A stretch of 64,000 bases of DNA from positions 309,324 through 373,323 of the forward strand of contig JAQUOD010000001.1 of assembly GCA_028717245.1 (NCBI GenBank), written 5' to 3'. This DNA is from Candidatus Omnitrophota bacterium (lineage in GTDB: Bacteria > Omnitrophota > Gorgyraeia > Gygaellales > Profunditerraquicolaceae). Below are positions 3,581-57,683 of the stretch, piece by piece. The first letter of the stretch is position 1. Every line of letters starts with the position of its first letter. A program made the position numbers and the translations under genes. Below the pieces are notes generated by a model. That model was given only the letters and a program-made list of their open reading frames with translations, searched no databases and was not told the DNA's origin.

Positions 3581-4750
3581 TTATTTTTCCAGTCTTAAGA
3601 AACGCTTCTTACCCACCTTTAGGATACCTTCCTGATCAAGGATAGAGTCTTCGCTGTCTAAACGTTTATCCGCAAAGGAAACGCCCCCCTGTTTTATCAG
3701 GCGCCGCGCTTCGTTTTTTGATTCCATTAAACCGCTATCCAAGAGCACGTCGATTAGACTAACTCCTCCTTCTTTTAATTTATAAACCGGGGCATCCTCA
3801 GGAAGCTCACCCTGGCTAAAAACGCGCTCAAAGCCTGCCCTGGCCTCCTTAGCCAAACGGCTGCCGTGATACTGAGAGGTTATCTTCTCTGCCAGGTTCA
3901 ATTTGGCTTGCTTAGGATGCATCTTCTTTACTGTTTCCAAATCCTCGTCCGTAAGCAGGGTGTAATACTTAAACATCAATTCATCGGACACCGACATAGT
4001 CTTCCCAAACATCTCCTTCGGTGCCTCATTAATACCAATATAATTACCCAGCGATTTACTCATCTTATTCACTCCGTCGGTGCCTTCAAGCAACGGTAGA
4101 GTAACGATTACCTGCGGGGACTGGCCAAAATCCTTTTGGAGTTCCCTGCCTACAATCAAATTGAATTTCTGGTCATTACCCCCAATCTCAATATCTGCCT
4201 TCAGGACTACCGAATCATACCCCTGAAGGATAGGATAAATAAATTCTGACATATATAGCGGCTTTTGCTCTTTAATCCTCAAGGAAAAATCATCCCGCTC
4301 TAATAACCTAGTTGCTGTGTAGTGGGTAAGCAGCCTGCCGAATTCAAGCCCCTTCAACCTGTTGAGCCAGCTGCTGTTAAAAACAATTTTTGTCTTTCTG
4401 GAATCAAGAATCTTAAAAACCTGTTTTTTATACGTCGCGCTATTAGCTTTTATTTCTTTTGCGCTGGGGACTCTTCTGGCTTTATTCTGTCCGGAGGGGT
4501 CGCCGATACGCGCGGTAAAATCACCGATGAGAAAAATCACCTGATGGCCTAAGTCCTGAAACTGGCGCAGTTTCCTCAAGAGGACAGTATGGCCCAAATG
4601 GATATCGGCGCTAGTTGGGTCAAAACCTGCCTTTACCCTCAAAGACCGGCCTTCTTTCAAGCTCTTTTCTAGCTTCAGCTTTAATTCTTCCTCGGAGATT
4701 ATCTCTACAGCCCCGCGCCTGATAATTTCCAGCTGTTTATTGATATCCAT
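3581..4750 (-). CDS. tyrS: tyrosine--tRNA ligase
   Basis: HLGH (HIGH-class) and KMSKS motifs; C-terminal S4-like domain. Confidence 0.93.
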   Translation of the reverse strand: MDINKQLEIIRRGAVEIISEEELKLKLEKSLKEGRSLRVKAGFDPTSADIHLGHTVLLRKLRQFQDLGHQVIFLIGDFTARIGDPSGQNKARRVPSAKEIKANSATYKKQVFKILDSRKTKIVFNSSWLNRLKGLEFGRLLTHYTATRLLERDDFSLRIKEQKPLYMSEFIYPILQGYDSVVLKADIEIGGNDQKFNLIVGRELQKDFGQSPQVIVTLPLLEGTDGVNKMSKSLGNYIGINEAPKEMFGKTMSVSDELMFKYYTLLTDEDLETVKKMHPKQAKLNLAEKITSQYHGSRLAKEARAGFERVFSQGELPEDAPVYKLKEGGVSLIDVLLDSGLMESKNEARRLIKQGGVSFADKRLDSEDSILDQEGILKVGKKRFLRLEK

Positions 4751-7164: not shown

Positions 7165-7742
7165 GAAAGATGCCTAATATTATCCATTATTTGTTTTGCG
7201 GTTTCTTGATAAGGCACCCTCCTTTCTATGGGAATTTGTTCTCCGAAACGTACTGAAATACTCGCTGCCTTCAGAAACTTAACGCCGCGAGGCAATGCCT
7301 TTTCTGTCCCTGATATAAAAGCCGGTATCACCGGCACGTCCAGTTTTGCGCTTAAAAAACCGATGCCCGCATAAGGTTCGCTCGATTTACCGTCGAATCT
7401 ACGGCTGCCTTCGGGAAATAAAGCCAGGCCTTTACCGTTTTTTACGCGGCGCATAGCTTCTTTAATCGCGGATAAATCCGCAGAATCCCTCTTTACGGGA
7501 AAGGCGTAGACCGCATGCAGGAGCCGCGAAATCCAGGGACGGCAAAATAATTCTTCTTTAGCCATATAATTCAATTTACGCGAACAGGCAGCCCCTAAGA
7601 CCCCAGGGTCTAAGTAACTGACGTGGTTACTGACCAAAATAAACCCGCCTTTCCTGGGGATATGCTTTACCCCACGTACCTCAAAATGGAAAAATATTTT
7701 TAAAATAATGATTATTAGAAACCTGAAGAAACTATAGAGCAT
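7146..7742 (-). CDS. plsC: 1-acyl-sn-glycerol-3-phosphate acyltransferase family protein
   Basis: NHVSYLD (HX4D) and FPEGSR acyltransferase motifs. Confidence 0.8.
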   Translation of the reverse strand: MLYSFFRFLIIIILKIFFHFEVRGVKHIPRKGGFILVSNHVSYLDPGVLGAACSRKLNYMAKEELFCRPWISRLLHAVYAFPVKRDSADLSAIKEAMRRVKNGKGLALFPEGSRRFDGKSSEPYAGIGFLSAKLDVPVIPAFISGTEKALPRGVKFLKAASISVRFGEQIPIERRVPYQETAKQIMDNIRHLSCEESN

Positions 7743-9120
7743 CCTTTAAAATTAATTCCCTGCCGTAGGCTAATAATTTTTTGGCATCGCTTAAATTCTT
7801 TGACTCCGCATAGATACGCATCAGAGGCTCGGTCCCTGAGGCCCGAAACATCAGCCAGCTTTCGTCTGCACAAATCAATTTTATACCATCGTAATCCTTT
7901 ACCTGCGTCACCTTTTTTCCTAAAAGTTGCCCCGGCAGCATTTCTTTCCTGGGTTCTACGCGTTTAGAAAGACGCAAATCCTGGCGTAAATAATAATAAC
8001 GGCCAAATTGTTTTTCGGTTTCATTCAAAATCTTCAGGATATCCTTATTACGGTAGGCCATCATCTCCAGGAGCAAGAGCCCTGCCACTGTCCCGTCGCG
8101 TTCAGGTATATACCCTTTGACGCCCATGCCGCCTGCCTCTTCTCCGCCGGCTAAGATATCTTCTGTCTCCATAAGGTTAGAGATATATTTAAAACCTACC
8201 GGGGTCTCGTAAAGCTTGGCCTTTAAAAATCCGGCTATATGGTCAATCATAGTCGTGCCTGCGATCGTCTTGACAATACCGCCGCGCCAGGACCTATCCT
8301 GATGCAGGTGCAACGCCAAAAGGCCCAATATTTTCTGTGGATGGATAAATATGCCGCCTGGCGCAACTGCGGCAATCCTGTCTGCATCGCCATCTAAGGC
8401 TATCCCCAAATCAAACTTCTCTTTTTTAACCCTGGATTTTAAACCTCCCAGGTTCTCTTCAACCGGTTCGGGGTTTATGCCCATAAAAGAAGGGTTGATG
8501 CTGTTACGCATAAACTCTAATCTTATATCTGTCCCTTTAAGTACCTGGGCGATAAAACTGTCTCCTGAACCATACATGACATCGACTAAAACCTTGAATC
8601 TTTTTTTCTTAACTTTCTTTAAATCAAGGTAAGAACGGATGAATTTAACGTAGGCTCCGGTTAAGTCTTCTTTCTTTATTAAATCCGCGCTGCCGCTATC
8701 AGGCTTAACAGGAGTTTTCCCTAAGCGTTTTTCTATATCCTCTGTGACCTCCTCACCTGCTGCCCCTCCTGAAGGTATCTTAATCTTAAAACCGTTATAT
8801 TGCGCGGGATTATGGGATGCGGTAATCATAATGCCTAAATCCAGTTTCCTTGACCTGACGGCAAAACTTAAAGCAGGAGTAGGGACAGCCCTGTCCGAAA
8901 GCAAAACCTTAATGCCGTTATTTTCCAGCACTCCCGCTGCTGCCTCGGCAAAATCTGCGGACATAAAACGCGTGTCATAACCTACTGCCGCATCCTTCCC
9001 GGAACCCAGATAATCTGCCACCGCCTGCGAAACAATCTTTAAGTTTTTAAAGGTGTAGTTCTTGGCAATGATACCTCTCCAGCCGTCTGTGCCGAATTTA
9101 ATCTCATGGTTATCTTGCAT
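7732..9120 (-). CDS. phosphoglucomutase/phosphomannomutase family protein
   Basis: TASHNP active-site Ser loop; GDGDADR metal site. Confidence 0.88.
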   Translation of the reverse strand: MQDNHEIKFGTDGWRGIIAKNYTFKNLKIVSQAVADYLGSGKDAAVGYDTRFMSADFAEAAAGVLENNGIKVLLSDRAVPTPALSFAVRSRKLDLGIMITASHNPAQYNGFKIKIPSGGAAGEEVTEDIEKRLGKTPVKPDSGSADLIKKEDLTGAYVKFIRSYLDLKKVKKKRFKVLVDVMYGSGDSFIAQVLKGTDIRLEFMRNSINPSFMGINPEPVEENLGGLKSRVKKEKFDLGIALDGDADRIAAVAPGGIFIHPQKILGLLALHLHQDRSWRGGIVKTIAGTTMIDHIAGFLKAKLYETPVGFKYISNLMETEDILAGGEEAGGMGVKGYIPERDGTVAGLLLLEMMAYRNKDILKILNETEKQFGRYYYLRQDLRLSKRVEPRKEMLPGQLLGKKVTQVKDYDGIKLICADESWLMFRASGTEPLMRIYAESKNLSDAKKLLAYGRELILKDAL

Positions 9121-9754
9121 TTCTTATCCTTTCAATTGCTAACCTGGTATTCTTTGCGCCGAATATATAAGAACCCGCGGCTAAAATATCAGCCCCTGAT
9201 TTTATAATCCTGGCTGCTACCTTATCGTTTACTCCCCCGTCTACAGAAATATCCCCTTTAAAAATAGAGCGTAACTGCCTTATTTTTGGCAATACTGCAG
9301 GTATAAAAGATTGGCCGCTAAAGCCGGGGTTGACTGACATAACTAAAACAAAATCTACAAACCCCAGCGTTTCCTTAATTTTTGTTAAGGGTGTAGCAGG
9401 ATTCAAGGATATACCGAGCTTTATTCCCTTTTTTTTAAGCTTTACGCTTTGCGCTTTAAGCTTTGCGCTTGATATGGCTTCAATATGCACGGTAATCATA
9501 TCGCTTCCGGCACTTATAAATTCATCAATGAATTTCTGCGGGTTTTCAATCATTAAATGCACGTCTAAAGGGAGCTTTGTCACCCGGCGTATATATTTAA
9601 CCACTACCGGCCCGATGGTAATATTAGGCACAAAGTGTCCGTCCATAACATCTATGTGCAGCATATCTGCACCCGCTGACTCCACCTTTTTTATTTCCCG
9701 GGCAAGGCAGCTAAAATCCGCAGATAATATGGATGGTGCGATTTTGATTTTCAT
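9110..9754 (-). CDS. rpe: ribulose-phosphate 3-epimerase
   Basis: MKIKIAPSILSADF...HIDVMDGHFVPN. Confidence 0.92.
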   Translation of the reverse strand: MKIKIAPSILSADFSCLAREIKKVESAGADMLHIDVMDGHFVPNITIGPVVVKYIRRVTKLPLDVHLMIENPQKFIDEFISAGSDMITVHIEAISSAKLKAQSVKLKKKGIKLGISLNPATPLTKIKETLGFVDFVLVMSVNPGFSGQSFIPAVLPKIRQLRSIFKGDISVDGGVNDKVAARIIKSGADILAAGSYIFGAKNTRLAIERIRNAR

Positions 9755-10317
9755 TTGTAGAGCCTCTTTTTATTAATATACCTGGATACTGCCTCGGGGA
9801 CCAGATAACGAAATGACCTCTCTTCTTTGATCGCCTGGCGTACTTCAAACCCGGAGACATCCACTGCCCTGATCGGTATGGTAGAAATGTGGGAAGGTAT
9901 CTCCTCCAGCGGATAACCCGGCCGCGTCGCTACCACAAACTTGACCATTTTAATGATTTCATCTAAATCCTTCCACTCTTTTAGATACTTAAGCAGGTCT
10001 GAACCGATTATAAAATATAGCTCATCCTGCGGGTATATTTCCTTTAATGCCCTCAAGGTGTCTATCGTATAAGAACGGCCGTCTCTTTTGATTTCAATAT
10101 CGGAAGCTAAAAAATGCCTGTTGCCTTTTATGGCCAGCTTCACCATAGTAAGGCGCGTAGCAGCGCAGGCAATATCAGAATTATCTTTATGCGGCGGCAG
10201 GTATGCCGGCACAAAAATAACCTTATCTAATTTTAACTTTTCCCTGACCTCCTCAGCTAAAATGAGGTGGCCGATATGTATAGGGTTAAAAGTACCGCCT
10301 AATATTCCTATTTTCAT
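9751..10317 (-). CDS. nadD: nicotinate-nucleotide adenylyltransferase
   Basis: GILGGTFNPIHIGHL (HxGH nucleotidyltransferase). Confidence 0.9.
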   Translation of the reverse strand: MKIGILGGTFNPIHIGHLILAEEVREKLKLDKVIFVPAYLPPHKDNSDIACAATRLTMVKLAIKGNRHFLASDIEIKRDGRSYTIDTLRALKEIYPQDELYFIIGSDLLKYLKEWKDLDEIIKMVKFVVATRPGYPLEEIPSHISTIPIRAVDVSGFEVRQAIKEERSFRYLVPEAVSRYINKKRLYK

Positions 10318-10342
10318 ACTGATTATTGTTAAAATTAGTTCA

Positions 10343-10420
10343 TTGAGTTTATTGAGTTCATAGAGTTATTGAGTTATACATGGTTTAACTCAAAAAACTC
10401 AACAAACTCAAGTAACTCAA
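10343..10420. repeat. phased heptamer array: 4 x TTGAGTT then 4 x AACTCAA (long imperfect palindrome) between proA and nadD
   Basis: TTGAGTT at 10343, 10352, 10361 (TAGAGTT) and 10369. AACTCAA at 10387, 10396, 10405 and 10414. Spacing is 8-9 bp in both arms. Confidence 0.8.
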
Positions 10421-10424
10421 CAAA

Positions 10425-11684
10425 CTATTTTCTAATTTGTCCCTTCCCGAATATCGTATATTTATATGTCGTTAATTCTTCTAATGCCATAGGCCCCCGC
10501 GCATGCAGTTTATCCGTAGAGATACCTATCTCAGCACCCATGCCGAATTGATAACCGTCAGTAAAACGCGTGGAGGCGTTCAGATAAACACAGGCAGAAT
10601 CCACCTGCTTTAAAAAAACTTCTGCGTTCTCTTTATTATCGGTAACAATAGCATCGGAATGATGCGAACCATAATGATTAATGTGCCTGATTGCCTCTTC
10701 TAAACTATCTACGACCTTAACCGATAGGATCAAATCCAGATACTCCGTATGGTAATCTGCATCTTTTGCCTTTTTAATATTTTTCACGATTTTGCAGGTT
10801 ATAGGGCAACCGCGGATTTCCACGCCGGCTTCTTTAAATTTCTTAATCATCCCGGGTAAAAATCTTATGGCAACATCTTTATGCACGAGCATGCTCTCCA
10901 TGGCATTGCAGACTCCAGGCCGCTGAACTTTAGCGTTGTAACATAAATTTTGGGCCATATTCAGGTCTGCCCAATCGTCAACATATACATGGCAGATACC
11001 CTTGTAATGTTTTATTACCGGGATACGCGAAGTTTTGACTACGCGGTTAATCAGGCTTTCGCCGCCGCGGGGAATCACTAGGTCAATATAATCGTTTAAT
11101 TTCAGTAATATATCCACGGCCTGCCTGTCGGCAGTAGTAACCATATTAACGATGCCCGGCGAGATACCTGATCTCTTTATTACCTCTTTGAGTATCTGGT
11201 ATATGGCCAGGTTAGAATTCAGGGCCTCGCTGCCCCCTCTTAAGATAACTGCATTTGCGGATTTAAAACATAACCCGATACAATCCGCAGTCACATTAGG
11301 CCGCGACTCATAAATAATCGCGATTACGCCGATAGGCACGCGCACTTTATTTATCAGGAGGCCGCAAGGCCTGCGCCAAGCCCTCATTACTTCACCCACC
11401 GGGTCATCTAATCCGGCTATTTCTAATAAAGAGCCTGACATCTCTTCTATCCTCTTTTGGTTAAGAACGAGCCTGTCGATAAATGCAGCCGATGAGCCAT
11501 TGGCAAGAGACTTCTGTATATCCTTCTTGTTTGCTTTGAGGATAATGTTTTTATTTTTCTTTAAGGCCATGGCCATGCCCTTGAGAACTTTATTCTTCAA
11601 CGCAGAGGATACGTTAAGCATGCCTAATGATGCCTCACGGGCATTCCTGGCTATACGGATAAATTCTTCTTTCAGCTGCGCCAT
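10425..11684 (-). CDS. proA: glutamate-5-semialdehyde dehydrogenase
   Basis: 419 aa, aldehyde dehydrogenase fold; gene order proB-proA. Confidence 0.9.
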   Translation of the reverse strand: MAQLKEEFIRIARNAREASLGMLNVSSALKNKVLKGMAMALKKNKNIILKANKKDIQKSLANGSSAAFIDRLVLNQKRIEEMSGSLLEIAGLDDPVGEVMRAWRRPCGLLINKVRVPIGVIAIIYESRPNVTADCIGLCFKSANAVILRGGSEALNSNLAIYQILKEVIKRSGISPGIVNMVTTADRQAVDILLKLNDYIDLVIPRGGESLINRVVKTSRIPVIKHYKGICHVYVDDWADLNMAQNLCYNAKVQRPGVCNAMESMLVHKDVAIRFLPGMIKKFKEAGVEIRGCPITCKIVKNIKKAKDADYHTEYLDLILSVKVVDSLEEAIRHINHYGSHHSDAIVTDNKENAEVFLKQVDSACVYLNASTRFTDGYQFGMGAEIGISTDKLHARGPMALEELTTYKYTIFGKGQIRK

Positions 11685-11685
11685 A

Positions 11686-12777
11686 CTATTTCTCCTGCAG
11701 TATCACTATATTATCGCGGTGGATTACTTCTCTGTCGTGACGAGTGCCTTTAACCTTATCTAAATGCCTGCTGGAAAGATTAACTTTACCCCTGGCAAAT
11801 TCGCAATTTTCTTTATCTGCCACGCTGACAATGTCCGCTGACTCAAAGACACCATGGGTAGCAAGAATCCCTACGGCAAGCAGGCTCTTTTTATTCATAA
11901 GCGCCTTTTTCGCCCCGTCGTCAACAGTAATACTCCCTTTGGCTTTTGTGCCAAAGGCGATCCAGCGTTCTCTTGCCGCTAAGCCCTTTTTAGGAGAAAA
12001 CAGTGTTCCATACTTTTCTGGTTCCTTGATTACCGATAAAATTATATCCTTCGTGCGCCCGTTGGCTATAACGCAAGGTATCCCAGAATCCATGCATATC
12101 TTTGCCGCCTCAATCTTTGTAATCATCCCACCGACGCAAATCTTCTTATCTGTCGGACAGGCAAGTGCCTTTATTTGAGAATTAATCTCATCTACAACAG
12201 GAATGACTTTCTTATCCTTATCTAAAAGCCCGTCTACATCAGAAAGAATAATTAAAAGGTCAGCGGAAATCAAACTGGAAACTAAAGCAGAAAGCCTATC
12301 ATTATCTCCAAATTTAATCTCATCAGTAGATATTGTATCGTTTTCATTAATTATAGGAACGATGTGCTGAAGGCAATGCTTTTGTTTTTTTAATAATGCC
12401 TGCAACGTATTTCGGGCATTTAAGTAACGTTTTCTATTTGCAAAATCTTCATTGGTTAAAAGGATCTGAGCGCTAAAATAACCCTTCCCGAAGAAACCCC
12501 GATAACCATCCATCAATTTATTTTGACCAATGGCTGCCGTTGCCTGTAAATCCTCCAACTTCCTGGGGCGTTCTTTTAAGCCAAGCGTACGCATGCCAAA
12601 AGCAATTGCCCCAGAAGAAACAACTATTACTTCGTTGCCTTCTTTAACTAAACTGGCAATTTGACGGTGAGCGATATCATAAACGAAAGAATCATCCCAG
12701 ACTTTATTCGCCGAATATAAAAGGCTTGAGCCTATTTTTACGACAATCCTCTTATATTTTTTTTCCGATTGCTTCAA
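11686..12777 (-). CDS. proB: glutamate 5-kinase (with PUA domain)
   Basis: IVVKIGSSLL...amino-acid kinase fold, C-terminal PUA. Confidence 0.9.
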   Translation of the reverse strand: MKQSEKKYKRIVVKIGSSLLYSANKVWDDSFVYDIAHRQIASLVKEGNEVIVVSSGAIAFGMRTLGLKERPRKLEDLQATAAIGQNKLMDGYRGFFGKGYFSAQILLTNEDFANRKRYLNARNTLQALLKKQKHCLQHIVPIINENDTISTDEIKFGDNDRLSALVSSLISADLLIILSDVDGLLDKDKKVIPVVDEINSQIKALACPTDKKICVGGMITKIEAAKICMDSGIPCVIANGRTKDIILSVIKEPEKYGTLFSPKKGLAARERWIAFGTKAKGSITVDDGAKKALMNKKSLLAVGILATHGVFESADIVSVADKENCEFARGKVNLSSRHLDKVKGTRHDREVIHRDNIVILQEK

Positions 12778-13708
12778 TTAATTCCTCCAGGCCTTCTTTT
12801 TTTAATGCCGATATGGGATAAACCTTCTTCTTTTTTATTGCCTTTCTAAATTTCTCCAGATTAACGGTTGCCCCTTCTAAATCCATTTTGTTGGCTGCGA
12901 TAATCTGAGGTTTTTTGTAAACTTCTTTGCTGTAATTTTTTAGTTCCCTGTTTATGACTTTATAATCTTCTAGGGGGTTGCGGCCTTCATATCCGGACAT
13001 ATCTATAAGATGGATAAGGATCCTCGTGCGCTCAACATGCCTGAGAAACTCATCGCCCAAACCCCTGCCCCTGGATGAACCCTCAATCAGCCCCGGGATG
13101 TCAGCGATAACAAAAGAGCCGCCTGCATAATTTACCGCCCCTAATACCGGGGCCTTGGTGGTAAAGGGATAAGGGGCAATTTTAGGATGGGCATGGGAAA
13201 TACCGCTAATCAAAGTGGATTTCCCTACATTAGGAAAACCCACCACTCCCACATCGGCAATAAGCTTTAAATCCAGGATTAATTCTTTTTCTTCCCCTGG
13301 CTCGCCGTCTGTAGCAATCTGACGATGCTGGTTACCTAAACCTCCCCTGCCTGCGTGCGCTATAATAATTTCTTCCTGGTCTTTACCTAAGTCGCGCAGG
13401 ATACAGCCTGTTTTGGCATCCTTGATAGCCGTGCCGCAAGGGACCCGGATAAGAACCGGGTGGGCGTCTTTACCTTTTTTGTTTTTACTGGACCCGTTTC
13501 CTCCGGCAGGGCCAAAGAAATGCCTATTGTAGCGAAAATCTAAAAGGGTGCGTAGATTCCTGTCTGCCCTTACGACGATATCCGCGCCCCTGCCCCCATT
13601 ACCGCCATTGGGGATACCCCTACGGGTATATTTATCGCGATATAAACTGCTACAGCCTCCTCCGCCGTGGCCGGCCTTTACATAAATTTTTGCGCTGTCA
13701 ATGAACAT
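12752..13708 (-). CDS. obg: GTPase Obg (short form without long C-terminal extension)
   Basis: MFIDSAKIYVKAGHGGGGCSS...Gly-rich Obg fold plus GFPNVGKST G-domain. Confidence 0.9.
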   Translation of the reverse strand: MFIDSAKIYVKAGHGGGGCSSLYRDKYTRRGIPNGGNGGRGADIVVRADRNLRTLLDFRYNRHFFGPAGGNGSSKNKKGKDAHPVLIRVPCGTAIKDAKTGCILRDLGKDQEEIIIAHAGRGGLGNQHRQIATDGEPGEEKELILDLKLIADVGVVGFPNVGKSTLISGISHAHPKIAPYPFTTKAPVLGAVNYAGGSFVIADIPGLIEGSSRGRGLGDEFLRHVERTRILIHLIDMSGYEGRNPLEDYKVINRELKNYSKEVYKKPQIIAANKMDLEGATVNLEKFRKAIKKKKVYPISALKKEGLEELIEAIGKKI

Positions 13709-21584: not shown

Positions 21585-23849
21585 TTATCGCACTACAGAA
21601 GCTGATTGCGAGCCGGGCTTAGGCGCATGATAATCTTGATTAAAATTAAACTCCAGCTCAGGAAATGCCTTTAGCCTAAAAACAAACCAGATGCTTTCGC
21701 CGTAGCCTCTTTTAACATTGTAGGTAACATCCCAAGTCCAACAGTGTAAATCTCTGGATATGGTATATTCCTGTTCTCTTAAACCCCTGGCCCTATTCGT
21801 TTCGTGCCCCCTATAGTATCTCTGATAAGCCGAGAACTTCCATTTAGGAGTCAAGCGCCACTTTAGATCATAGGTTATTTCATTGCCGCCTTTTATCTCA
21901 TAACGCTGCCCTACCCCGAATGAGCGTTCATTCCCAAAATCAAAATTAATATCATAATTACCGTTAGAGAAATGGTTGTATTTAGGGTCAGAGCGGGCCC
22001 CGGAATGCGTATAGGTGGCATCAGCATCTATATGCATCCATGAATATGGCAAGATTCGCAAATCAAAGAGGACATCAGAGAAGCCGCTGCCCCGCTTACT
22101 CCTTCCTTCCGAGATAGATTTAGGTTTATATACATAGGAGGTATTGATGCGTAAATCCGCAAAATCCACGCTTTTATTATTACGTTTTGTCTGCAGTTTA
22201 TTGGATATTTCAAAAGCCGGAGAGTTGCTGCTGGTATCAATCGTATCTACATCATCTATCTGCCTAAGCTTAGCGCTTCCTATGGTAGGCTCGTGACGAT
22301 AGGTATAACTTACGGTAGGCGTAATGATATGCCTTAAGCCGTTTATATCTAACCCTAAAAAGTTGCTCTTTATATCAAATATACGGTAAAATTTAGTGCT
22401 CATATCCGCCCCGCCATAAAAAATAGTGCGCGGGGCTTCGTCGGAAGCGCTAACCGCCTTTTTATCGTAAAAGGTCAGGCGGTCCATAACAAAAGGAGTG
22501 AAATTGATAAAAGCTACCTTCATAGGTATGGACAGCTTATTACTGGTATCCAGCCTGTCCACGTGGGCATCAGGATTAGTATCGTTTGCCGTAGGCGTCA
22601 TGGTGCTGGTGTTCTTCTTATTATAACTGCCCGCAGAAGTAGTATCTTCAAAATAAAATGGGCTGTCTAAAATCTGGTAACTGGGCAGGCTATATTTTAC
22701 TTCGGGGAGCTTTTCCAAATAACCCGGGTCATACCAACGGTTAGTACGTTTCTGCACAAGTATATCTAAGCTGGAATAATTGAAACTGTGGTGCAATAAG
22801 GCATAACTCAGCGGTTGGCTATCCTTTTCGTATTCACGATAGAAATAATCTTTCAGAAAATTATATGTAGGGCCCTTGATCGCCATCTTAGAATCCGTAA
22901 TTTTATAATATTCTGAGGTAAAATCTGTTCTTTCGTCTATAGTCCACTTGTGCCGCCAACGGATAAGGTATCTTTGGAATATTCTGGGATTGCTATTGTC
23001 TTTGGGAAGGGTATGGTCTCTTTCCTGGGTATAATAATATTTGAAATCGCCTCTTCCGAAATTTTCACTTTTATAATTAGCCCCAAAACCTTCTGCTACG
23101 CCGAGTTTAGTGCGATAATCCAGGTAAATCCTGCCGTTGATATTATCGGTAAAGCTGTATCTCCAGGCGCTGAGCATATAAGGGCCCCATTCTTTTTTCT
23201 TACCGGGCGTTAACTGCACGTGCGCCATCGGGTCCTTCAGGTTATGGTTGTATCGGGGAAGATACAATATGGGCACCTTACCTATGTAGAAAGCATTATC
23301 CTTAGCCTGGATCTTGTCATTCGGAAAAACATCTATCTTTCCGGATTTAATACGGTAATGGGGATTATCATAACTACAAGTGGTAAAATATCCCCGGTTA
23401 GCTATAAATTCGCTATCGCTCACCTTCTCTACGTTCTCTGCCCTGCCGAAATAGGGATTAGCCCGAAAACCTGAATCAATAATAATGCCTTTCTTGGTCT
23501 GGAAATTATATTTTATTTTTTTTCCCTCTACTATCCCTTCCTTATCTTCCAGCCTGACATCGCCTTCGGCCTGTGCATCCTTAGTCTGGGTGTTTACGCT
23601 CAACTTATGGCAGGTCAGCTTGCTGCCTTTATAGATTACCGATACGTTTCCCGTAGCAGTCACTTCTTTGGCATCGGTAGAATATTCAACCGTATCGCCG
23701 TTCACAATAATAGCTTCGTCTTTTTTCTCTTGGGCGTATAAGCTGTAAGCTGTAAGCTGTAAGCTGTAAGCGAAAATAAAAAAGGACAGTGAAATCATCC
23801 TAAGAAATTTCAACTTTTGAACTGTGATTTCTAATTTATGACTTATCAC
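21585..23849 (-). CDS. lptD: LPS-assembly protein LptD (OstA family)
   Basis: 754 aa with OstA N-domain and large beta-barrel region. The annotated GTG start is doubtful; an internal ATG (MISLSFFIF...) about 16 codons downstream fits a signal peptide better. Confidence 0.8.
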   Translation of the reverse strand: MISHKLEITVQKLKFLRMISLSFFIFAYSLQLTAYSLYAQEKKDEAIIVNGDTVEYSTDAKEVTATGNVSVIYKGSKLTCHKLSVNTQTKDAQAEGDVRLEDKEGIVEGKKIKYNFQTKKGIIIDSGFRANPYFGRAENVEKVSDSEFIANRGYFTTCSYDNPHYRIKSGKIDVFPNDKIQAKDNAFYIGKVPILYLPRYNHNLKDPMAHVQLTPGKKKEWGPYMLSAWRYSFTDNINGRIYLDYRTKLGVAEGFGANYKSENFGRGDFKYYYTQERDHTLPKDNSNPRIFQRYLIRWRHKWTIDERTDFTSEYYKITDSKMAIKGPTYNFLKDYFYREYEKDSQPLSYALLHHSFNYSSLDILVQKRTNRWYDPGYLEKLPEVKYSLPSYQILDSPFYFEDTTSAGSYNKKNTSTMTPTANDTNPDAHVDRLDTSNKLSIPMKVAFINFTPFVMDRLTFYDKKAVSASDEAPRTIFYGGADMSTKFYRIFDIKSNFLGLDINGLRHIITPTVSYTYRHEPTIGSAKLRQIDDVDTIDTSSNSPAFEISNKLQTKRNNKSVDFADLRINTSYVYKPKSISEGRSKRGSGFSDVLFDLRILPYSWMHIDADATYTHSGARSDPKYNHFSNGNYDINFDFGNERSFGVGQRYEIKGGNEITYDLKWRLTPKWKFSAYQRYYRGHETNRARGLREQEYTISRDLHCWTWDVTYNVKRGYGESIWFVFRLKAFPELEFNFNQDYHAPKPGSQSASVVR

Positions 23850-23892
23850 TTATAGCTTATAGCTTATAACTTATAGCTTATAACTTATAACT
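23736..23892. repeat. two tandem short-repeat blocks at the lptD 5' end: (GCTGTAAG)x4.5 at 23740-23771 inside the coding region, and (CTTATAR)x7 at 23841-23892 across the start
   Basis: Read directly from the sequence. The in-frame octamer block encodes AYSLQLTAYSLYA in the LptD signal-peptide region. Confidence 0.9.
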
Positions 23893-24537
23893 TCACTTGG
23901 GGATTTTCTTATAATCCTCCAGGAACCTCTGGACGCCTATGTCCGTCAAGGGGTGTTTTATCAGCTGTTCGATGACGGCAAAAGGTATGGTGGCGATATC
24001 TGAGCCGATCTTTGCCGCCTCTACTACATGCAAAGGATTACGGATAGAAGCTACGATTATCTGGGTCTTAAAATTATAATTGGAGTAGACCTGTTTTATA
24101 TCGCGGATCAAATCCATTCCTACCTGGCTTATATCATCCAGCCGGCCGATAAAGGGCGATATATAGTCTGCCCCGGCCTTGGCCGCGAGTATTGCCTGTG
24201 AAGGAGAAAAACAAAGCGTAACATTTGTTTTTATTCCTTTTTCGGAAAGAATTTTTACTGCCTTAAGTCCCTCCTTAACCAGGGGAACCTTAATCACGAT
24301 ATTCTTGGCAATCTTAGAAAGCTCTAAGGCCTCAGCGACCATGCCGTTAGCTTCCAAAGATATAACCTCTGCGCTTACCGGGCCATTTACCAATGAACAT
24401 ATCTCTTTTAATAATTCGCCTGCCTTACGGTTTTCTTTTGCGATTAGGCTGGGATTGGTGGTAACCCCGTCTATGACACCTAAAGCTACTGCCTCTTTTA
24501 TATCTTTTACATTCGCGGTATCAATGAATATTTTCAC
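23893..24537 (-). CDS. tal: transaldolase (fructose-6-phosphate aldolase-like short form)
   Basis: [16 protein letters not shown]...TTNPSL; GTG start. Confidence 0.9.
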
Positions 24538-24589: not shown

Positions 24590-25516
24590 TCATTGCCTTA
24601 TCCCCTCTTTTACTAATATAGCGGCCCCGATTAAACCTGCATCAGCGCCTAATTTTGCCTTAAATATATTTACGCGCCTTGCCTGCACGCTCATTGCGCG
24701 TTTTAAGGTAATCTTTTTTAAATTATCGAACAAGACTCTACCGGCATTTGCTACTCCCCCTCCGATAACGATACAATCCGGATTAAGTATATTTATTATA
24801 CCCGTAAGCGCAACTGATAACCTTTCAGCGAATTGCCTCCAGATTGCTTTGGCCTTGGGATTTCCTTTTCTTGCCAAAGAACTCAATTCCTCCAGGGTTA
24901 TGCTGCTGCTAAAGATCTTCCTTGCTTCTTCCAAAACCCTGTTATTACCGATATAACTTTCAAGGCAGGCCCTGCCGCCGCAATTACACCGCGGCCCATT
25001 TTCATTAATCGGCAAATGCCCTATTTCGCCTGCGGCGTTACTTAATCCGCGGTAGAGCTTCCCGTTAATAATGATGCTTCCGCCGATGCCGGTTCCTAAA
25101 GTAAGGCATACGGCATTAGTTGCACCTCTGGCTGCGCCGAGTTTATATTCTGCAAGGCACATGGCCTTGGCATCATTATCCACGAATACCGGTAACCTTA
25201 ATTTATTTTGGAGAATAATTTTTAGTTTTACTTCTTTCCAGCCGGGAATATTAGGGAAGAAATGGACTATTCCTTTTTCAAAATCTATAGGGCCGGGCAA
25301 ACCTAAACCGACACCTAAGAGGTTCGCCCTGTTTAACTTATTATCCTTTAAGATTTTATCTACGGAATGGACGATTGCCGAAATCAAGGCTTCTTTTTTA
25401 CTAAACCTTTGTGTATCTAAGACTTCCTTGTGCCTAATCCTGAACTTTAAATCTAATAATGCAATCTTTAAATTCGTCCCCCCTAAATCAATAGCCGCTA
25501 TAAATCTCTTCGCCAT
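24590..25516 (-). CDS. ROK family sugar kinase (glucokinase-like)
   Basis: AIDLGGTNLK ATP-binding region and CNCGxxGCLE zinc motif. Confidence 0.88.
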   Translation of the reverse strand: MAKRFIAAIDLGGTNLKIALLDLKFRIRHKEVLDTQRFSKKEALISAIVHSVDKILKDNKLNRANLLGVGLGLPGPIDFEKGIVHFFPNIPGWKEVKLKIILQNKLRLPVFVDNDAKAMCLAEYKLGAARGATNAVCLTLGTGIGGSIIINGKLYRGLSNAAGEIGHLPINENGPRCNCGGRACLESYIGNNRVLEEARKIFSSSITLEELSSLARKGNPKAKAIWRQFAERLSVALTGIINILNPDCIVIGGGVANAGRVLFDNLKKITLKRAMSVQARRVNIFKAKLGADAGLIGAAILVKEGIRQ

Positions 25517-25563
25517 AGTTATTTATTCTATATGAAAGTTACGATAATTTCAATAGATAATAT

Positions 25564-25874
25564 TTTAGCGGGTCCTGCCGCGTGAGCGCCTCTCGCCAAA
25601 TTTGGCTCGAGGCATCTCCCGCGTCACCCGCTAAAGATAAATATGTCAACTTGCAACAAATGAATCTGGCGGTTTTCGAGCGAATGGAGGTTTTAGCCAA
25701 AGCAGCTTGAGTGAACGAGGGAATCCGAACGCGGAAGCATTCGGACAGCGAGGATGTTTGAGCCCGTCCTGGCGAAGCCGACGGGCGAGTTCCGCAGCTG
25801 CCGAGTTCACGAAAGACCTTTGGCGTGCCCGATAGGGCAAAACCGACTTGAGCGAGAAAATCGACAGATTCATT
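25564..25874. repeat. modular intergenic element, copy B
   Basis: Begins TTTAGCGGGTCCTGCCG and ends CAGATTCATT. Has the same core as copies A and C, plus the conserved TTTGAGC-hairpin-CGAGTTC module with a different stem sequence than A. Confidence 0.7.
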
Positions 25875-25889
25875 TGTACGGTAGGCTTG

Positions 25890-26873
25890 CTAATAAAGGC
25901 AAACCTTGTTCCTGCCTCCTTCTTTGGCGCGGTATAAAGCCGTATCAGCTTTATCAATAAGCGTCTTCATATCCTTGCCGTCACCGGGAAAAACAGAGAT
26001 ACCTATACTGACCGTAACTTTTAATTCTTCATCATAGGCCTTTATACGCTTCTCTTCTATGGCCTGGCGGATACGCTCTGCCGCAAACCCCGCTGCTTCT
26101 TTATCCGTCTGGCTCAGAATAACGGAGAATTCTTCTCCGCCGTAGCGGCCCATTAAATCTATCTGCCTGATATTCTGCTGGATTATCTTAGAAAGCTCCC
26201 TGAGTATGGTATCTCCCACAATATGGCCGTAACGGTCATTATATTCTTTAAAATAGTCTATATCTATCATTAAACAACAAAACCGATAGTTGAATTTTTG
26301 TGAACGCTCCAATTCTTCTTTAAACCTCTCCAGATAATACCGGCGGTTAAAAACCTTAGTAAGGCTGTCTATGATAGCCAGCTCCTGGACGTCCTGATAC
26401 AAGATGGCTCTTTTAATCCCCAGAAGAAACTGCTGGGATAAGATATAAAATTTATCCCTCTCCTCCTCCTTTAATCCTTCTACCACCAGATGGCCGATAA
26501 GCTCCCCGCTTATGCTTAAGGGAAAGGTTAAGCAGTCTTTATAAACCGACAGATCTTGATTACCTTTCAAAAATTTACAATCATTTACCGTAACATATTC
26601 CCTGACCTTTTCCTTAAAACAAGCGAACACCTTATCCGCATCCAGTGTTTTAGAGATCTGTTTGGTTATATCGTAAAGGGCCATTGTACTATCGAGTTTA
26701 TCCTGCAATCTATGGTTGGCTTCTTTAATCATCTTGTTTTCTGCCGATAGGTTATCATATTCATTTTTCAGGCTTTTATGCATATGGGCCTCAATGGGGC
26801 TCTTAGACAATTTCTTCCTAAGCCAAAGGAATAAAAAGAAAGTAGCCAGGACTAAAATTATTATGTAATACAT
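25890..26873 (-). CDS. GGDEF-domain diguanylate cyclase with N-terminal TM helix and coiled coil
   Basis: RYGGEEFSVIL active-site motif. Confidence 0.88.
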   Translation of the reverse strand: MYYIIILVLATFFLFLWLRKKLSKSPIEAHMHKSLKNEYDNLSAENKMIKEANHRLQDKLDSTMALYDITKQISKTLDADKVFACFKEKVREYVTVNDCKFLKGNQDLSVYKDCLTFPLSISGELIGHLVVEGLKEEERDKFYILSQQFLLGIKRAILYQDVQELAIIDSLTKVFNRRYYLERFKEELERSQKFNYRFCCLMIDIDYFKEYNDRYGHIVGDTILRELSKIIQQNIRQIDLMGRYGGEEFSVILSQTDKEAAGFAAERIRQAIEEKRIKAYDEELKVTVSIGISVFPGDGKDMKTLIDKADTALYRAKEGGRNKVCLY

Positions 26874-30119: not shown

Positions 30120-30144
30120 TTTCCCGTATTGTGTATCGCGTTAT

Positions 30145-30162
30145 GCGTATTGCGCAATACGC
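30145..30162. promoter_or_regulatory. perfect 18-bp palindrome GCGTATTGCGCAATACGC upstream of accD, embedded in CGCAATAC/GTATTGCG repeats
   Basis: The sequence reads identically on both strands. Extra copies of the 8-mer lie at 30166-30174 and, degenerate, at 30125-30140. Confidence 0.75.
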
Positions 30163-30180
30163 CATACGCAATACTCGCTC

Positions 30181-31737: not shown

Positions 31738-31760
31738 TTGTTCATTCCTTTTTTATAATA

Positions 31761-31834
31761 AAGTATCAAGGTGTCAATGTGTCAGAGTATCAAAGTAAAA
31801 CTTTGACACTTTGATACCTTGACACTCTGATACA
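31761..31834. repeat. phased heptamer array: 4 x GTRTCAR then 4 x YTGAYAC (imperfect palindrome) between dnaJ stop and FmdB start
   Basis: GTATCAA 31763, GTGTCAA 31771, GTGTCAG 31780, GTATCAA 31787. TTGACAC 31802, TTGATAC 31811, TTGACAC 31819, CTGATAC 31827. Confidence 0.75.
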
Positions 31835-32998
31835 TTATTTAAATGCTTTCTTTATCCTATCGACAACGCCTTCCCTGTTTATGTCTTCACCCGACGATCT
31901 GGCAAAATCTTCTATGAGCCGGCGTTGCTCTAAAGTTAAACGCGTAGGGATTTCAACCGTTACTCTAACCAGTTCATCGCCTATATCCCTGCTATGTACA
32001 TCGGGTATGCCTTTCTCCCTAAGCCGGAAAATTTTTCCGCTTTGCGTGCCAGGGGGTATCTTCATTTCAACATGGCCATTGAGCGTAGGAACCTCTATCT
32101 CAGAGCCTAATATCGCTTTCGTTAAGCTGATAGTTACTCCAGTTAATATATCATTATTGTGCCTTTGAAAAACCGGATGCGGCCTTACCTCAATAACTAC
32201 ATATAAATCGCCTCTGCCGGCAGTGCCGGATTCTCCCTCTCCCCGTATCCTCAAATGCGAATCCGTATCTACTCCGGCGGGGATCTTCACTTTAATCTTA
32301 CGCGTTACCTTAGTCCTGCCTTGCCCGCGGCATTGCGGGCAGGGCGCTTGTATAATCGAACCTTCTCCGCCGCAGCGCGAACAGGCCTGGGCCAGCTGAA
32401 AAAAACCGTTAGAGACTACTGTACGGCCCGAACCTTTACACTGAGAACAGGTAACCTTTTTAGTGCCCGGTTTTGCTCCGCTGCCCGCGCATACCTGACA
32501 TGTTTCATAGCGGGGCACATTAATAGTCTTTTCCGTACCGCTGGCTGCTTCTTCCAAAGTTATATTCAATGCAATCTCTAAATCTCTCCCGCGGCGCGCA
32601 GCACGTCCTGTGCCCTGACGGCCCCTGCCGCCGAAAATATCATAGCCTAAATCGCTGAATATTTCGTCAAATAACCCGCCTCCTACGCCAAAGTCTCCCA
32701 GGTCCTGGAATACGCTGTTAAAATCTGCCCCCTTAAAAATATCTTCATAGGCATATTTCTGATCTATCCCGGAATGGCCATACTGGTCATAAAGGGCCCG
32801 CTTTTGAGAATCAGAAAGTACCGCATAAGCTTCGGAAATTTCTTTGAACTTCTCTTCTGCTTCTTTTTTTTGCTCGTGAGGCACCCTGTCCGGATGATAA
32901 CGCAGGGCCATCTCCCGATAGGCCTTCTTTATTTCATCCAGACTGGCACTCTTTTTGACTCCCAGGATTTCGTAATAATCACGTTTTGTAGTCGGCAT
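31835..32998 (-). CDS. dnaJ: molecular chaperone DnaJ
   Basis: J-domain HPD, G/F region, four CxxCxGxG zinc repeats. Confidence 0.95.
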
Positions 32999-33007
32999 TC
33001 TTAGTTT

Positions 33008-33046
33008 TAAGCTGTAAGCTTTAAGCTTACGGCTTACTGCTTAAGA
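33008..33046. repeat. GTAAG-family heptamer tandem repeat / hairpin in the dnaK-dnaJ intergenic region
   Basis: AGCTGTAAGCTTTAAGCTTACGGCTTACTGCTTAAGACTTACC. Contains a 9-bp stem GCTGTAAGC/GCTTACGGC with loop TTTAA. Confidence 0.7.
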
Positions 33047-34960
33047 CTTACCACTTTTATCATCTTCTTCCTTAAAATCCGCGTCTATAATATCTTCGTC
33101 TTTTCCGCCGGAGGCGGATCCGCCTTCGGCGGACTTCTTATCCTCTGGCTCTTCAGTTTGCTCCTGGCCTCTTGCACCTTGCGCCTGGCCCTGTTGCTGC
33201 TGTTTCTGCGCTGCCTGCTTATATATTTCTTCTGCTAATTTATGCGAGGCCTTGGTTAAATCCTCTGAGCCCCTTTTGATCCTATCAACGTTCTTATCTT
33301 TTATAGCTGCCTTAAGGTCATTGAGCTTTGCTTCTATATCTAAGCGCTCTGCCTGGGAGACTTTATCGCCGAATTCTTTCAGGGATTTCTCCGTAGCGTA
33401 AACAAGATTGTCTGCCTGGTTAATGACTTCTACTTCTTCTTTCTTCTTTGTGTCTTCGGCGGCAAACTTTTCCGCATCCCTGACCATCTTATCGATTTCT
33501 TCTTTAGAGAGCTTCTTGGGTGCGGTAATGCGTATGGATTGTTCTTTGCCTGTGCCTAAATCCTTGGCAGAAACGTGCACAATCCCGTCACGGTCAATAT
33601 CAAATTTTACCTCTATCTGCGGAACGCCGCGCGGAGCCGCGGGAATACCTACCAGGTCAAACCTGCCCAATTCCACGTTATCATCGGCCATCTGGCGTTC
33701 GCCCTGAAGCACGCGGATAGTCACCGCCGTCTGATTATCGGCAGCTGTGGAAAATATCTGGCTCTTTTGCGTAGGGATAGATGCGTTTCTTTCAATCAAT
33801 TTTGTATCTACTCCGCCTAAGGTTTCAATACCGAGGGATAGCGGGGTAACATCCAAAAGCAATACATCTTTAACATCCCCCTTTATAATCGCTGCCTGTA
33901 TTGCAGCGCCTAAGGCAACGCACTCCATGGGGTCGACTCCGCGCTCTATTTTCTTGCCGACATAATCCTCGACAAATTTCTGCACGATAGGCATACGCGT
34001 AGGCCCGCCGACCATGATAATCCTGTCTATATCTTTGGGCGTCAATTTGGCATCGCTGATTGCCTGCTCCATGGGGTGGCGGCACCGGTCAATTATAGGC
34101 GAAATCAAATCCTCTAATTTTGCGCGGGTGATGGTCATGGTTAAATGCTTAGGGCCGGTGGCGTCTGCCGTGATAAAAGGTAAATTGATATCCGTGCTTA
34201 CCGTAGAGGATAATTCTATCTTGGCCTTCTCCGCTGCCTCGCGTAACCTCTGCACAGCCATCTTGTCATTCATCAGGTCTATCCCGGTTTCGCGTTTAAA
34301 TTGCCCGGCAATATGTTCAAGTAATACCTTATCCATATCTGTGCCGCCTAATTGCGTATCGCCTGATGTTGACTGCACATGGAATACGCCTTGAGCCATT
34401 TCCATTATAGTGACATCCAGGGTTCCGCCGCCTAAATCAAAGACCATGATCTTCTGCTCTTTCTGCGCTTTTTCAAGGCCATAAGCCAGGCAGGCTGCGG
34501 TCGGTTCGTTTATAATCCTTAATACTCTTAAACCCGCTATTTCACCGGCATCCTTAGTAGCTGTCCTCTGGTTATCATCAAAATATGCGGGGCAGGTAAT
34601 TACCACTTCCTCAACTTTATCTCCGAGATACGCCTCCGCATCCTGCTTTATCTTTTGCAGGATAAAAGCGGAGATCTGTTGCGGCGTATATTCCTTGCCG
34701 AAAACTTTAAACTTAAAGTCAGTACCCATCTTACGTTTAGCAGCTTGTATAGTACCTTCTGCGTTAATTGCTGCCTGGCGCCTAGCCGGCTCGCCGACTA
34801 AACGCTGGCCGTCTTTGGTAAAAGCAACGTAAGAAGGGAATGCCTTGCCTGATGCCACGCCCGCGCCTTCGGCAGACGGGATTATTACGGGCCTGCCGCC
34901 TTCCATCACTGCTGCTGCCGAGTTAGATGTCCCTAAGTCAATACCTATCACTTTAGCCAT
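33041..34960 (-). CDS. dnaK: molecular chaperone DnaK
   Basis: [16 protein letters not shown] and VGGPTRMP Hsp70 signatures. Confidence 0.97.
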
Positions 34961-34987
34961 ATTGCACCTCCGTAAATTTTAAATTAT

Positions 34988-35080
34988 CCAATTGCTAAAT
35001 CCCAATTAATTTCCAATTATTCAATTACCAATTGTAGAATTGGGCATTGGTAATTTATTGGACATTGGAAATTGGGAATT
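34988..35080. repeat. CCAATT/AATTGG palindromic element, copy 1, in the dnaK leader
   Basis: 4-5 x CCAATT, then 5 x ATTGG inverted. About 93 percent identical over about 95 nt to the copy at 51105-51210. Confidence 0.85.
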
Positions 35081-35087
35081 ATAAAAT

Positions 35088-35639
35088 TTATTTCTGTTTA
35101 CTAACCTTCACTTTCGCCGTCCTGATAATCCGGTCATTCAATAAATAACCTTTTTGTAATTCCTCTATAACGGTGTGCTCCGGCACATCAATGTCTTCTG
35201 CCTGCATCAGCGCTTCGTGGTAATGCGGGTCAAATAACTTACCCTCTGCCTCGATGGGTTTAACCCCGTATTCTTTCAGCATTTCGTAAAGATGCGCCAG
35301 GATCATTTCTACGCCTTTTAAAAAAACCGGCAGGTCCTGGTGTTTAGACTGGGCTAATTCCACAGTGCGCTCTAAATCATCCAGTATATTTAATAATTCT
35401 AGAATAATGCCTTCGTTAGCAAATTTTACAAAATCCTGCTTTTCCTTCTCTAAACGCTTACGCGTATTATCAAAATCAGCCTGCAGCCGCAGCAACCTGT
35501 CCCAGTATTCCTTAGCTTTTTCTGCCTCTTCCTTTAACTTCAGGTATTCGGATTCTGGCAAAGAAACGGTCTTTTCTTCTTTTGCGGGCGCTTCGGTGTG
35601 CTTTTTATCCTCTTGCTGATTTTGTTTCTGGGGCTGCAT
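35088..35639 (-). CDS. grpE: nucleotide exchange factor GrpE (start placed at internal ATG with SD)
   Basis: The ORF track extends to 35798, but AAGGATGACGATG gives an SD plus ATG at 35639. GrpE coiled-coil and beta domain follow. Confidence 0.85.
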   Translation of the reverse strand: MQPQKQNQQEDKKHTEAPAKEEKTVSLPESEYLKLKEEAEKAKEYWDRLLRLQADFDNTRKRLEKEKQDFVKFANEGIILELLNILDDLERTVELAQSKHQDLPVFLKGVEMILAHLYEMLKEYGVKPIEAEGKLFDPHYHEALMQAEDIDVPEHTVIEELQKGYLLNDRIIRTAKVKVSKQK

Positions 35640-36400: not shown

Positions 36401-36427
36401 TTAGCGCTTCCACCATAAGAATGCTAA
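36401..36427. promoter_or_regulatory. CIRCE operator 2 (TTAGCGCTT-N9-GAATGCTAA), immediately downstream of the hrcA promoter -10
   Basis: Matches the CIRCE consensus TTAGCACTC-N9-GAGTGCTAA at 14/18 arm positions. Promoter TTGACA (36456-36461) -16- TAGAAT (36434-36439) on the minus strand. Confidence 0.8.
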
Positions 36428-36492: not shown

Positions 36493-36519
36493 TTAGCGCC
36501 CTCAACCATAGAGTGCTAA
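36493..36519. promoter_or_regulatory. CIRCE operator 1 (TTAGCGCCC-N9-GAGTGCTAA)
   Basis: 15/18 arm matches to the CIRCE consensus. Located upstream of the -35 element. Confidence 0.8.
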
Positions 36520-51095: not shown

Positions 51096-51104
51096 AATTC
51101 AATT

Positions 51105-57675: not shown

Positions 57676-57683
57676 ACTACCTC

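Follow-up and report, generated by a model that had tools for sequence, protein, structure and literature searches.

Gene-less copies are known among the intervening sequences (IVSs) of ribosomal RNA (rRNA) genes. The IVS in the 23S rRNA of Coxiella burnetii carries a gene of the four-helix-bundle family; its inverted ends pair into a stem of 28 bp that RNase III cuts, and strains differ in how many copies of a tandem GACAGAT heptamer it contains (PMC4990558). Heptamer arrays have also been described in Xanthomonas, with 70-75 convergent pairs of GGGAATC arrays of unknown function per genome (PMC4692102), and in marine Beggiatoaceae, Cyanobacteria and Bacteroidetes, in which TAACTGA is repeated directly (PMC4679880). 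Here we analyze a periodic palindrome of short repeats between the proA and nadD genes of a Candidatus Omnitrophota bacterium, within a stretch of 64,000 nt that was analyzed as a whole (the window; contig JAQUOD010000001.1 of assembly GCA_028717245.1, positions 309,324 to 373,323). We consider it reasonably probable that this array is a gene-less, IVS-like hairpin, belonging to a class of elements that reside between cistrons, and that it is looped out in the RNA.

The palindromic array occupies 90 bases (10337-10426) including its partial outer units. On the plus strand, its left arm contains TTGAGTT at 10343, 10352 and 10369 and a unit with one mismatch, TAGAGTT, at 10361 (spacings of 9, 9 and 8 nt), and its right arm contains four exact AACTCAA units at 10387, 10396, 10405 and 10414 (spacings of 9, 9 and 9 nt). 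A preliminary description of this DNA, which counted four direct TTGAGTT copies at 8-9 bp followed by four inverted copies at 9 bp, was accurate for the inverted copies and for the spacing of the direct ones, three of which are exact while the fourth is TAGAGTT. Partial fifth units (AGTT at 10337-10340 and AACT at 10423-10426) extend the palindrome to its full length, and the period is 9 nt, composed of a 7-nt core and a 2-nt linker. Exact heptamer matches number 16 in the window, 7 of them inside the 78-base array of full units, as compared to a mean of 7.4 matches in shuffled windows (0 of 100 shuffles reached 16). Both 9-nt arrays and the inverted repeat were reported by TRF as well as by a repeat finder. 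The array is a real feature, well beyond chance. No second TTGAGTT array was found in the window or in the loci of relatives, and a scan of the window against Rfam at gathering thresholds gave no match.

Between the stop codon of proA and the start of nadD, both of which are minus-strand genes, lies a gap of 107 nt that the array fills. In the orientation of the mRNA its parts are the following:

10387 to 10426, minus strand: 5' arm of the hairpin, four UUGAGUU units with 2-nt linkers and a partial fifth unit

10376 to 10386, minus strand: loop of 11 nt, ATACATGGTTT on the plus strand and AAACCAUGUAU in the mRNA sense

10337 to 10375, minus strand: 3' arm of the hairpin, AACUCAA, AACUCUA, AACUCAA, AACUCAA and a partial AACU

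10318 to 10336, minus strand: A/U-rich unpaired leader of 19 nt from the 3' base of the hairpin to the nadD AUG, AAUUUUAACAAUAAUCAGU

The mRNA strand is predicted to fold into a single stem of ~39 bp with small internal loops at the linkers (-41.8 kcal/mol, z = -7.8; 0 of 200 shuffles fold as well), as compared to -33.8 kcal/mol (z = -5.5) for the opposite strand, with the 8 kcal/mol difference stemming from G-U pairs at the TG/TG linkers. The folding-energy check proposed in the preliminary description thus bears out, as a structural prediction, the long periodic RNA hairpin between cistrons that was suggested there. That description also placed the array against the proA stop; indeed, the TAG stop codon (10425-10427) is paired within the base of the stem. 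The last full unit lies 25 nt from the nadD ATG rather than the 26 nt first given, and the lack of a GGAG-type Shine-Dalgarno motif between the array and the ATG was correctly observed. Owing to bulges in the arms, a strict ungapped palindrome finder recovered just two elements, and a sliding-window fold scan across the window mostly reflected G+C content and gave no useful information.

Relatives of the ProA protein at 67-79% identity were nearly all labelled Candidatus Omnitrophota, and those at 70-79% identity were so without exception. We measured the gap from the proA stop to the nadD start in 40 distinct relatives, counting the window itself among them:

gap of -4 nt (ATGA overlap): 20 of the 40 loci

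gap of 4-15 nt: 5 of the 40 loci

gap of 31-159 nt: 14 of the 40 loci, including the window (107 nt)

gap of 432 nt: 1 of the 40 loci, L201, with a gene-bearing cassette

The prevalence of the 4-nt overlap among relatives, as compared to 107 nt here, indicates that the array is an insertion at this junction. The larger gaps are mostly occupied by hairpin-forming inserts, and 6 of the 14 inserts of 31-159 nt are periodic palindromes whose repeat unit differs from one to the next. Besides the array in the window, these are:

L003: unit TTAGGTN

L011: unit CAGCTNN

L018: units AAGAGTG / AACTCTT

L029: CAAAAT-type units

L062: units GTTATAA/CTTACGA

These sequences show the proA/nadD junction to be a recurrent landing place for inserts. 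In L004, L027, L033, L034 and L050, which are other Omnitrophota, it holds palindromes of a different family with the form GGGAC(A/T)GTCCC(C)-loop-(G)GGGAC(A/T)GTCCC; this family looks like a dispersed repeat of the repetitive extragenic palindrome (REP) type.

At the same junction, loci L032 and L060 carry a gene of ~130 aa that belongs to PF05635/TIGR02436 ("23S rRNA intervening-sequence protein", "four helix bundle protein"), with a tandem array upstream of the gene and the reverse complement of that array downstream. Gene-bearing cassettes flanked by inverted periodic arrays are also found between proA and nadD in L070-72, L073 and L201, which brings the relatives with such a gene to five. 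A profile search retrieved thousands of PF05635 homologues, many named Omnitrophota and most on short contigs. In the contexts that we fetched, the cassette genes lie between cistrons of conserved operons and are co-oriented with them, with further junctions at rpe/pgm, gatA/gatB, T2SS-E/F, cheA/cheB, V-ATPase I/c and a pilus/T2SS-type locus (L203). Arrays flank 12/12 of the gene sites inspected in Omnitrophota-type metagenome loci. L032-type genes are accompanied by GTGTAAT/ATTACAC arrays, with GTGTAAT present at seven or more junctions, and L060-type genes (35% identical to the L032 gene) by TTAATTGG/CCAATTAA arrays, indicating that the repeat unit tracks the protein subfamily.

Locus L073 brings the two kinds of insert together. 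Its operon runs from proA through nadD and rpe to pgm, with a gene cassette at the first and the last of the three junctions and, between nadD and rpe, a palindrome that has no gene (-59.1 kcal/mol, z = -9.5). This palindrome aligns collinearly with both arms, left and right, of the gene cassettes on that contig. Such collinearity is direct evidence that gene-less hairpins and gene cassettes are two forms of one element, the gene-less form consisting only of two arrays around a short loop. We regard it as likely that the array in the window belongs to this class of hairpins, which flank four-helix-bundle genes where a gene is present.

Parts of the proteins are themselves encoded by the arrays: the final units of the upstream GTGTAAT/GTGGAAT array specify the N-termini of L032-type proteins (MWNG..., MCNV...), and the tail at the C-terminus of L060-type proteins (INQLTN) comes from the downstream CCAATTAA array.

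As in the rRNA IVSs of Coxiella burnetii and Leptospira (PMC4990558), the array in the window is extra sequence in a transcribed region, with inverted ends that can pair into a long stem. The Coxiella element has tandem heptamers in the 5' end from which its stem is formed, a PF05635 gene may be present in or absent from the loop of such elements, and the window array has gene-bearing relatives at the very same proA/nadD junction. It differs from the rRNA IVSs in that its host site is a spacer of an mRNA, and not helix 9, 25 or 45 of the 23S rRNA, and in that its arms consist wholly of tandem units with a 9-nt period, around an 11-nt loop without an open reading frame (ORF).

The genes around the junction, identified from the ORF list and Pfam, are:

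12752 to 13708, minus strand: obg

11686 to 12777, minus strand: proB

10425 to 11684, minus strand: proA, gamma-glutamyl phosphate reductase (Pfam Aldedh)

9751 to 10317, minus strand: nadD, nicotinate-nucleotide adenylyltransferase (Pfam CTP_transf_like)

9110 to 9754, minus strand: rpe

7732 to 9120, minus strand: pgm, phosphoglucomutase

In an obg-proB-proA-nadD-rpe-pgm message, the two arms would pair into an interrupted stem of ~39 bp and the insert would be looped out. The stop codon of proA, located at the 5' base of this stem, and the start of nadD, 19 nt beyond the 3' base, would thereby come close to each other again. Such a stem would be a likely substrate of RNase III, as in the rRNA IVSs; excision of the window array by this enzyme is suggested by analogy with Coxiella, Salmonella and Leptospira (PMC4990558). 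Either looping out or RNase III cutting would make the insert tolerable at a junction where the two genes formerly overlapped. We hold this RNA-level mechanism only tentatively, as a possibility somewhat short of even. About half of the gene-less elements, including the one between proA and nadD, lack a downstream Shine-Dalgarno motif, which fits some form of coupling across the stem. The insert is probably a tolerated and selfish one, and probably neither an operator nor a terminator.

No transposase or RAYT gene was seen near any element, nor was there a clear target-site duplication; copies of GAAAATAG stand to either side of the insert, but they are accounted for equally well by homology to the conserved end of proA and start of nadD. 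In a separate assembly (Logan SRR22315508, L001) the same proA is followed by the first array units, after which the contig ends. Within the rpe coding region, at 9434-9470, there is a stretch with a 7/14-nt periodicity, GCTTTAAGCTTTGC (2.3 copies, 94% match).

A long stable hairpin directly after a stop codon, followed by AAUUUU, might also be an intrinsic terminator or attenuator that lowers transcription of nadD relative to proA, as the preliminary description had offered among its options. The base of the stem, however, is A/U-rich with only four U after it, and a terminator scan found no site at the array. There is also no promoter-like site between the hairpin and nadD from which transcription could restart, other elements of the class lack following U runs, and the genes overlap, and are presumably co-translated, in half of the relatives measured. 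A role in termination or attenuation is therefore very improbable.

The array between proA and nadD is not the only one of its kind in the window. Our pipeline for detecting periodic arrays found 6 paired inverted arrays in the window, as compared to 0 in each of 20 Markov simulations matched to the dinucleotide composition of the window. All paired arrays in the window lie between genes of the same strand, and several start directly after a stop codon. The further paired arrays are:

23737 to 23893: TAAGCTG/TTATAGC, two arrays with a 60-nt spacer

30120 to 30180: unit GTATTGC

31757 to 31839: 8-nt units GTATCAAA/GTGTCAAG

32999 to 33051: unit GTAAGCT, between dnaK and dnaJ

34990 to 35085: unit CCAATTN, between grpE and dnaK

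51096 to 51215: unit CCAATTN, between a lipoyl synthase-like and a thioredoxin-reductase-like gene

Three of these six punctuate the grpE-dnaK-dnaJ operon. Overall, the units present in the window are TTGAGTTNN, GTATTGC, GTATCAAA/GTGTCAAG, GTAAGCT, CCAATTN and TTATAAC, with periods of 7, 8 and 9 nt, and GTAAGCT is found at three sites. The two CCAATTN arrays have unrelated gene pairs as neighbours, yet the regions around them (34975-35100 and 51085-51225) align at 87% identity, indicating that at least some members of the class are dispersed copies. The CCAATTN motif resembles the CCAATTAA arms of the L060-type cassettes.

Outside the window, locus L018, from a groundwater metagenome-assembled genome, holds eight or more paired arrays in 9 kb. 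One of them is a composite hairpin of 160 nt between proB and proA (3818-3979; -98.7 kcal/mol in the sense orientation), in which the successive repeat blocks CGCAGAGA, CAAGATG and AAGCTGA are mirrored. Many other relatives are without such arrays, so that the class is patchy across lineages. Homology of the window array to another L018 element was considered and is not claimed: in a MAFFT alignment with L018 6050-6150 the two share only the 7-nt core.

The variety of units, together with the periods of 7, 8 and 9 nt, does not fit a single sequence-specific regulator or a 10.5-bp helix-face phasing, and this bears directly on another proposal of the preliminary description, which linked the array to the heat-shock repressor HspR. 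The operator of HspR, HAIR, has the sequence CTTGAGT-N7-ACTCAAG. The array shares with it the hexamer TTGAGT/ACTCAA, so that the units might be HAIR half-sites bound by the product of a MerR-family ORF that is present in the window at 36537-36800. The array differs, however, in having eight half-sites instead of two, in lying between cistrons of a proline/NAD operon rather than in a heat-shock promoter, and in the spacing of its sole inverted pair, which is TTGAGT-N13-ACTCAA and not N7; its sister elements have unrelated units. Searching the whole window for HAIR with up to 3 mismatches retrieved one match, at 8608, where 1.6 are expected by chance, and no HAIR site beyond chance was found upstream of the dnaK operon. 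Instead, two CIRCE-like elements (36401-36427 and 36493-36519; TTAGCGC...GCTAA type, with 2-3 mismatches to the consensus) lie between the MerR-type gene and hrcA, at the hrcA-grpE-dnaK-dnaJ operon, and suggest that this operon is probably controlled by HrcA and CIRCE. The HspR-like gene reported earlier can be confirmed only as an 87-aa ORF of MerR type, not as anything more specific. The N13 spacing, the lack of HAIR sites beyond chance and the CIRCE elements at the dnaK operon contradict an HspR operator, which we consider extremely improbable.

Beyond Omnitrophota, we examined 15 plasmid-borne PF05635 genes from Cyanobacteria, Bacteroidota and Gemmatimonadota, of which at least 13 adjoin tandem arrays with units of 7-8 nt. 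The arrays are inverted in 8 clear cases and one borderline case, and direct on both sides of the gene in 5 cases, with a repeat unit that differs lineage by lineage. Examples are:

Calothrix and Nostoc punctiforme: inverted, GGGTGTA/TACACCC

Nostoc edaphicum: inverted, GTAGGGA/TCCCTAC

Nostoc C052: inverted, GGGAACA/TGTTCCC

Geminocystis: inverted, GGGAARA/TTTTCCC

Riemerella: inverted, GGTTYAA/TTRAACC

Pseudanabaena galeata plasmid (L221), between cas6 and cas4: direct, (GCTAAAA)x14

On a Picosynechococcus plasmid (L212), a four-helix-bundle gene sits between cmr2 and cmr3 with heptamer arrays alongside. The presence of 23S_rRNA_IVP genes between cas genes has been noticed before, and these genes were read as functional partners (PMC3936711). 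The reported association of the family with CRISPR-Cas may instead reflect its habit of inserting between cistrons.

That arrays accompany these genes across phyla, in some cases as direct repeats for which a hairpin is impossible, and that the unit co-varies with the four-helix-bundle subfamily, would also be expected if the array were a row of DNA or RNA sites to which an oligomeric protein binds in trans. The likeliest such protein would be a pentameric four-helix-bundle protein of the S23p/Avd type and not HspR: members of the family form pentamers (as cited in PMC4990558), and there is a weak match to the Avd model NF033474, Avd being a component of diversity-generating retroelements. Against this stand the lack of a four-helix-bundle gene in the window and two irregularities, namely linkers of 2 nt that vary and one imperfect unit, TAGAGTT, neither of which would be expected of a tight operator array. 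We judge such a row of binding sites to be rather improbable, though less so than a terminator.

Several of our observations weigh against the array being an IVS-like hairpin that is looped out in RNA. No PF05635 gene or remnant was found in the window, either by tblastn with 120 homologues or by a hidden Markov model search in six frames, and we found no gene-bearing cassette with TTGAGTT arms; among the 120 homologues there were no C-terminal tails that betray a TTGAGTT-type array. The only other element with an AACTCAA core (L018, 6058-6136) is itself gene-less and has an 8-nt period, and the period of the window array is 9 nt and not 7. The direct arrays of some plasmid cassettes imply that not all members of the wider class can form a hairpin. 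Furthermore, of 23 gene-less elements, 13 have their more stable fold on the sense strand and 10 on the antisense strand, pointing to no general selection on the RNA strand, so that the 8 kcal/mol sense advantage at the proA/nadD array may be due to chance. The G-rich arm is on the 5' side in the sense orientation in 16 of the 23 elements, which is a trend only (p = 0.09). Finally, in L003, L018 and L011 the outermost unit overlaps conserved codons of proA or nadD, suggesting that some arrays could have grown in place and not by insertion.

The overlap with conserved codons speaks for a neutral origin in place, in which slippage near the stop and start codons expands a short sequence and template switching (fold-back) then produces its inverted copy, with no link to cassettes and no function. 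The L003 unit TTAGGT matches the conserved C-terminal proA codons GTT AGG, the TGA stop of proA in L018 is part of the first AAGAGTG unit, and the last unit in L011 merges into the nadD start. Arrays that are direct only also exist at the proA/nadD junction (L037), and both the absence of strand asymmetry in folding and the patchiness of the arrays between lineages are consistent with such an origin. However, the same units turn up at unrelated sites and in different genomes (seven or more junctions have GTGTAAT, and the window has CCAATTN in two copies and GTAAGCT at three sites), the gene-less element of L073 is collinear with gene-bearing cassettes, and a purely local origin leaves the tracking of unit and protein subfamily unexplained. 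We therefore see the in-place origin as unlikely, while giving it more weight than a row of binding sites, and retain the IVS-like hairpin as the favoured explanation.

Viral sequences did not inform this choice. The four-helix-bundle alignment gave no match against viral contigs. A pattern of three TTGAGTT-N2 units gave more than 120 matches in IMG/VR viral contigs (L081-L160); as a 9-nt period would also fit coding tripeptide repeats, these matches were not used.

The class also resembles other described repeats in part. The convergent pairs of Xanthomonas (PMC4692102) and the STRR-type repeats of Cyanobacteria are likewise intergenic arrays followed by their reverse complement, capable of forming stem-loops or cruciforms, and most were reported as transcribed. 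Xanthomonas has one genome-wide unit that is G-rich and quadruplex-capable, whereas the window has many A/T-rich units; the arrays of the window, moreover, fill stop-to-start gaps inside operons, and the Xanthomonas study draws no link to four-helix-bundle genes. The TAACTGA repeats (PMC4679880) are similar in being intergenic and located just upstream of start codons, often without an intervening Shine-Dalgarno motif. They differ in being direct and of a single unit, with only one inverted case reported; they form no hairpin, and a gene associated with them has not been described.

REP elements with their mosaic arrangements (BIMEs), and MITEs (miniature transposable elements with inverted repeats), are also short palindromic non-coding inserts between operon genes, some of them dispersed, and REP hairpins stabilise the upstream mRNA. 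The class in the window differs from these in its internally periodic arms, its units that vary from site to site and its association with four-helix-bundle genes. A literature search of incomplete coverage retrieved no description of array-bracketed four-helix-bundle cassettes between cistrons or of gene-less hairpins derived from them, which is weak evidence that they are undescribed.

Other parts of the window contain repeats and structured regions of different kinds. Two direct heptamer arrays, one of ACACAAT type (39809-39834) and one of GTAAGCT (39856-39887), lie 20 nt apart and are mutually non-complementary; the ORF caller places them (39809-39887) in an N-terminal extension of the ORF at 39095-39895. 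Two large, strongly structured non-coding regions (25517-25889 and 57187-57683) have in common a core of ~60 nt, TTCGCTCGAAAACYGCCAGATTCATTTGT...CATATTTATCTTTAGCGGGTRACG, and a distal CAGGACCCGYTAAA that is able to pair with the core. No Rfam match was found in 25400-26000 at E <= 1, and the two regions may be two copies of a novel RNA or element.

The new point of this analysis is the kinship of the periodic hairpin with four-helix-bundle cassettes of the intervening-sequence type. This kinship ties heptamer repeat arrays to a widespread family of proteins whose function is unknown, and lends itself to direct testing. It touches on three long-standing puzzles, namely the nature of the abundant heptamer repeats in Cyanobacteria, Xanthomonas and other bacteria, the role of the "23S rRNA intervening-sequence" four-helix-bundle proteins, and the reason for which their genes appear between cas genes and other operon genes. 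The heptamer arrays, the four-helix-bundle genes and their placement in cas operons may be parts of one thing.

Taken further, the arrays of 7-9-nt units and the PF05635 (S23p/Avd-like) genes could together make up one widespread mobile system without a transposase, in which each subfamily recognises its own unit. Gene cassettes and far commoner gene-less hairpins would colonise the stop-to-start gaps of operons as well as rRNA helices, would be rendered harmless through RNA folding or RNase III excision, and would possibly spread through the excised RNA. We offer this joint scheme as speculation that is, on balance, unlikely to hold. If it were true, footprints of the system would include the array in the window as well as the heptamer repeats, long without an explanation, that are seen in Cyanobacteria, Xanthomonas, Beggiatoa-type bacteria and Bacteroidota.

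For practical work, such arrays break short-read assemblies, and four-helix-bundle genes in cas operons can pass for functional partners though they may be inserts. For the biology of these bacteria, the array shows that operon junctions in their genomes are not minimal: a hairpin of 100 nt can replace a 4-nt overlap, and the translation of the downstream gene thereby becomes a question.

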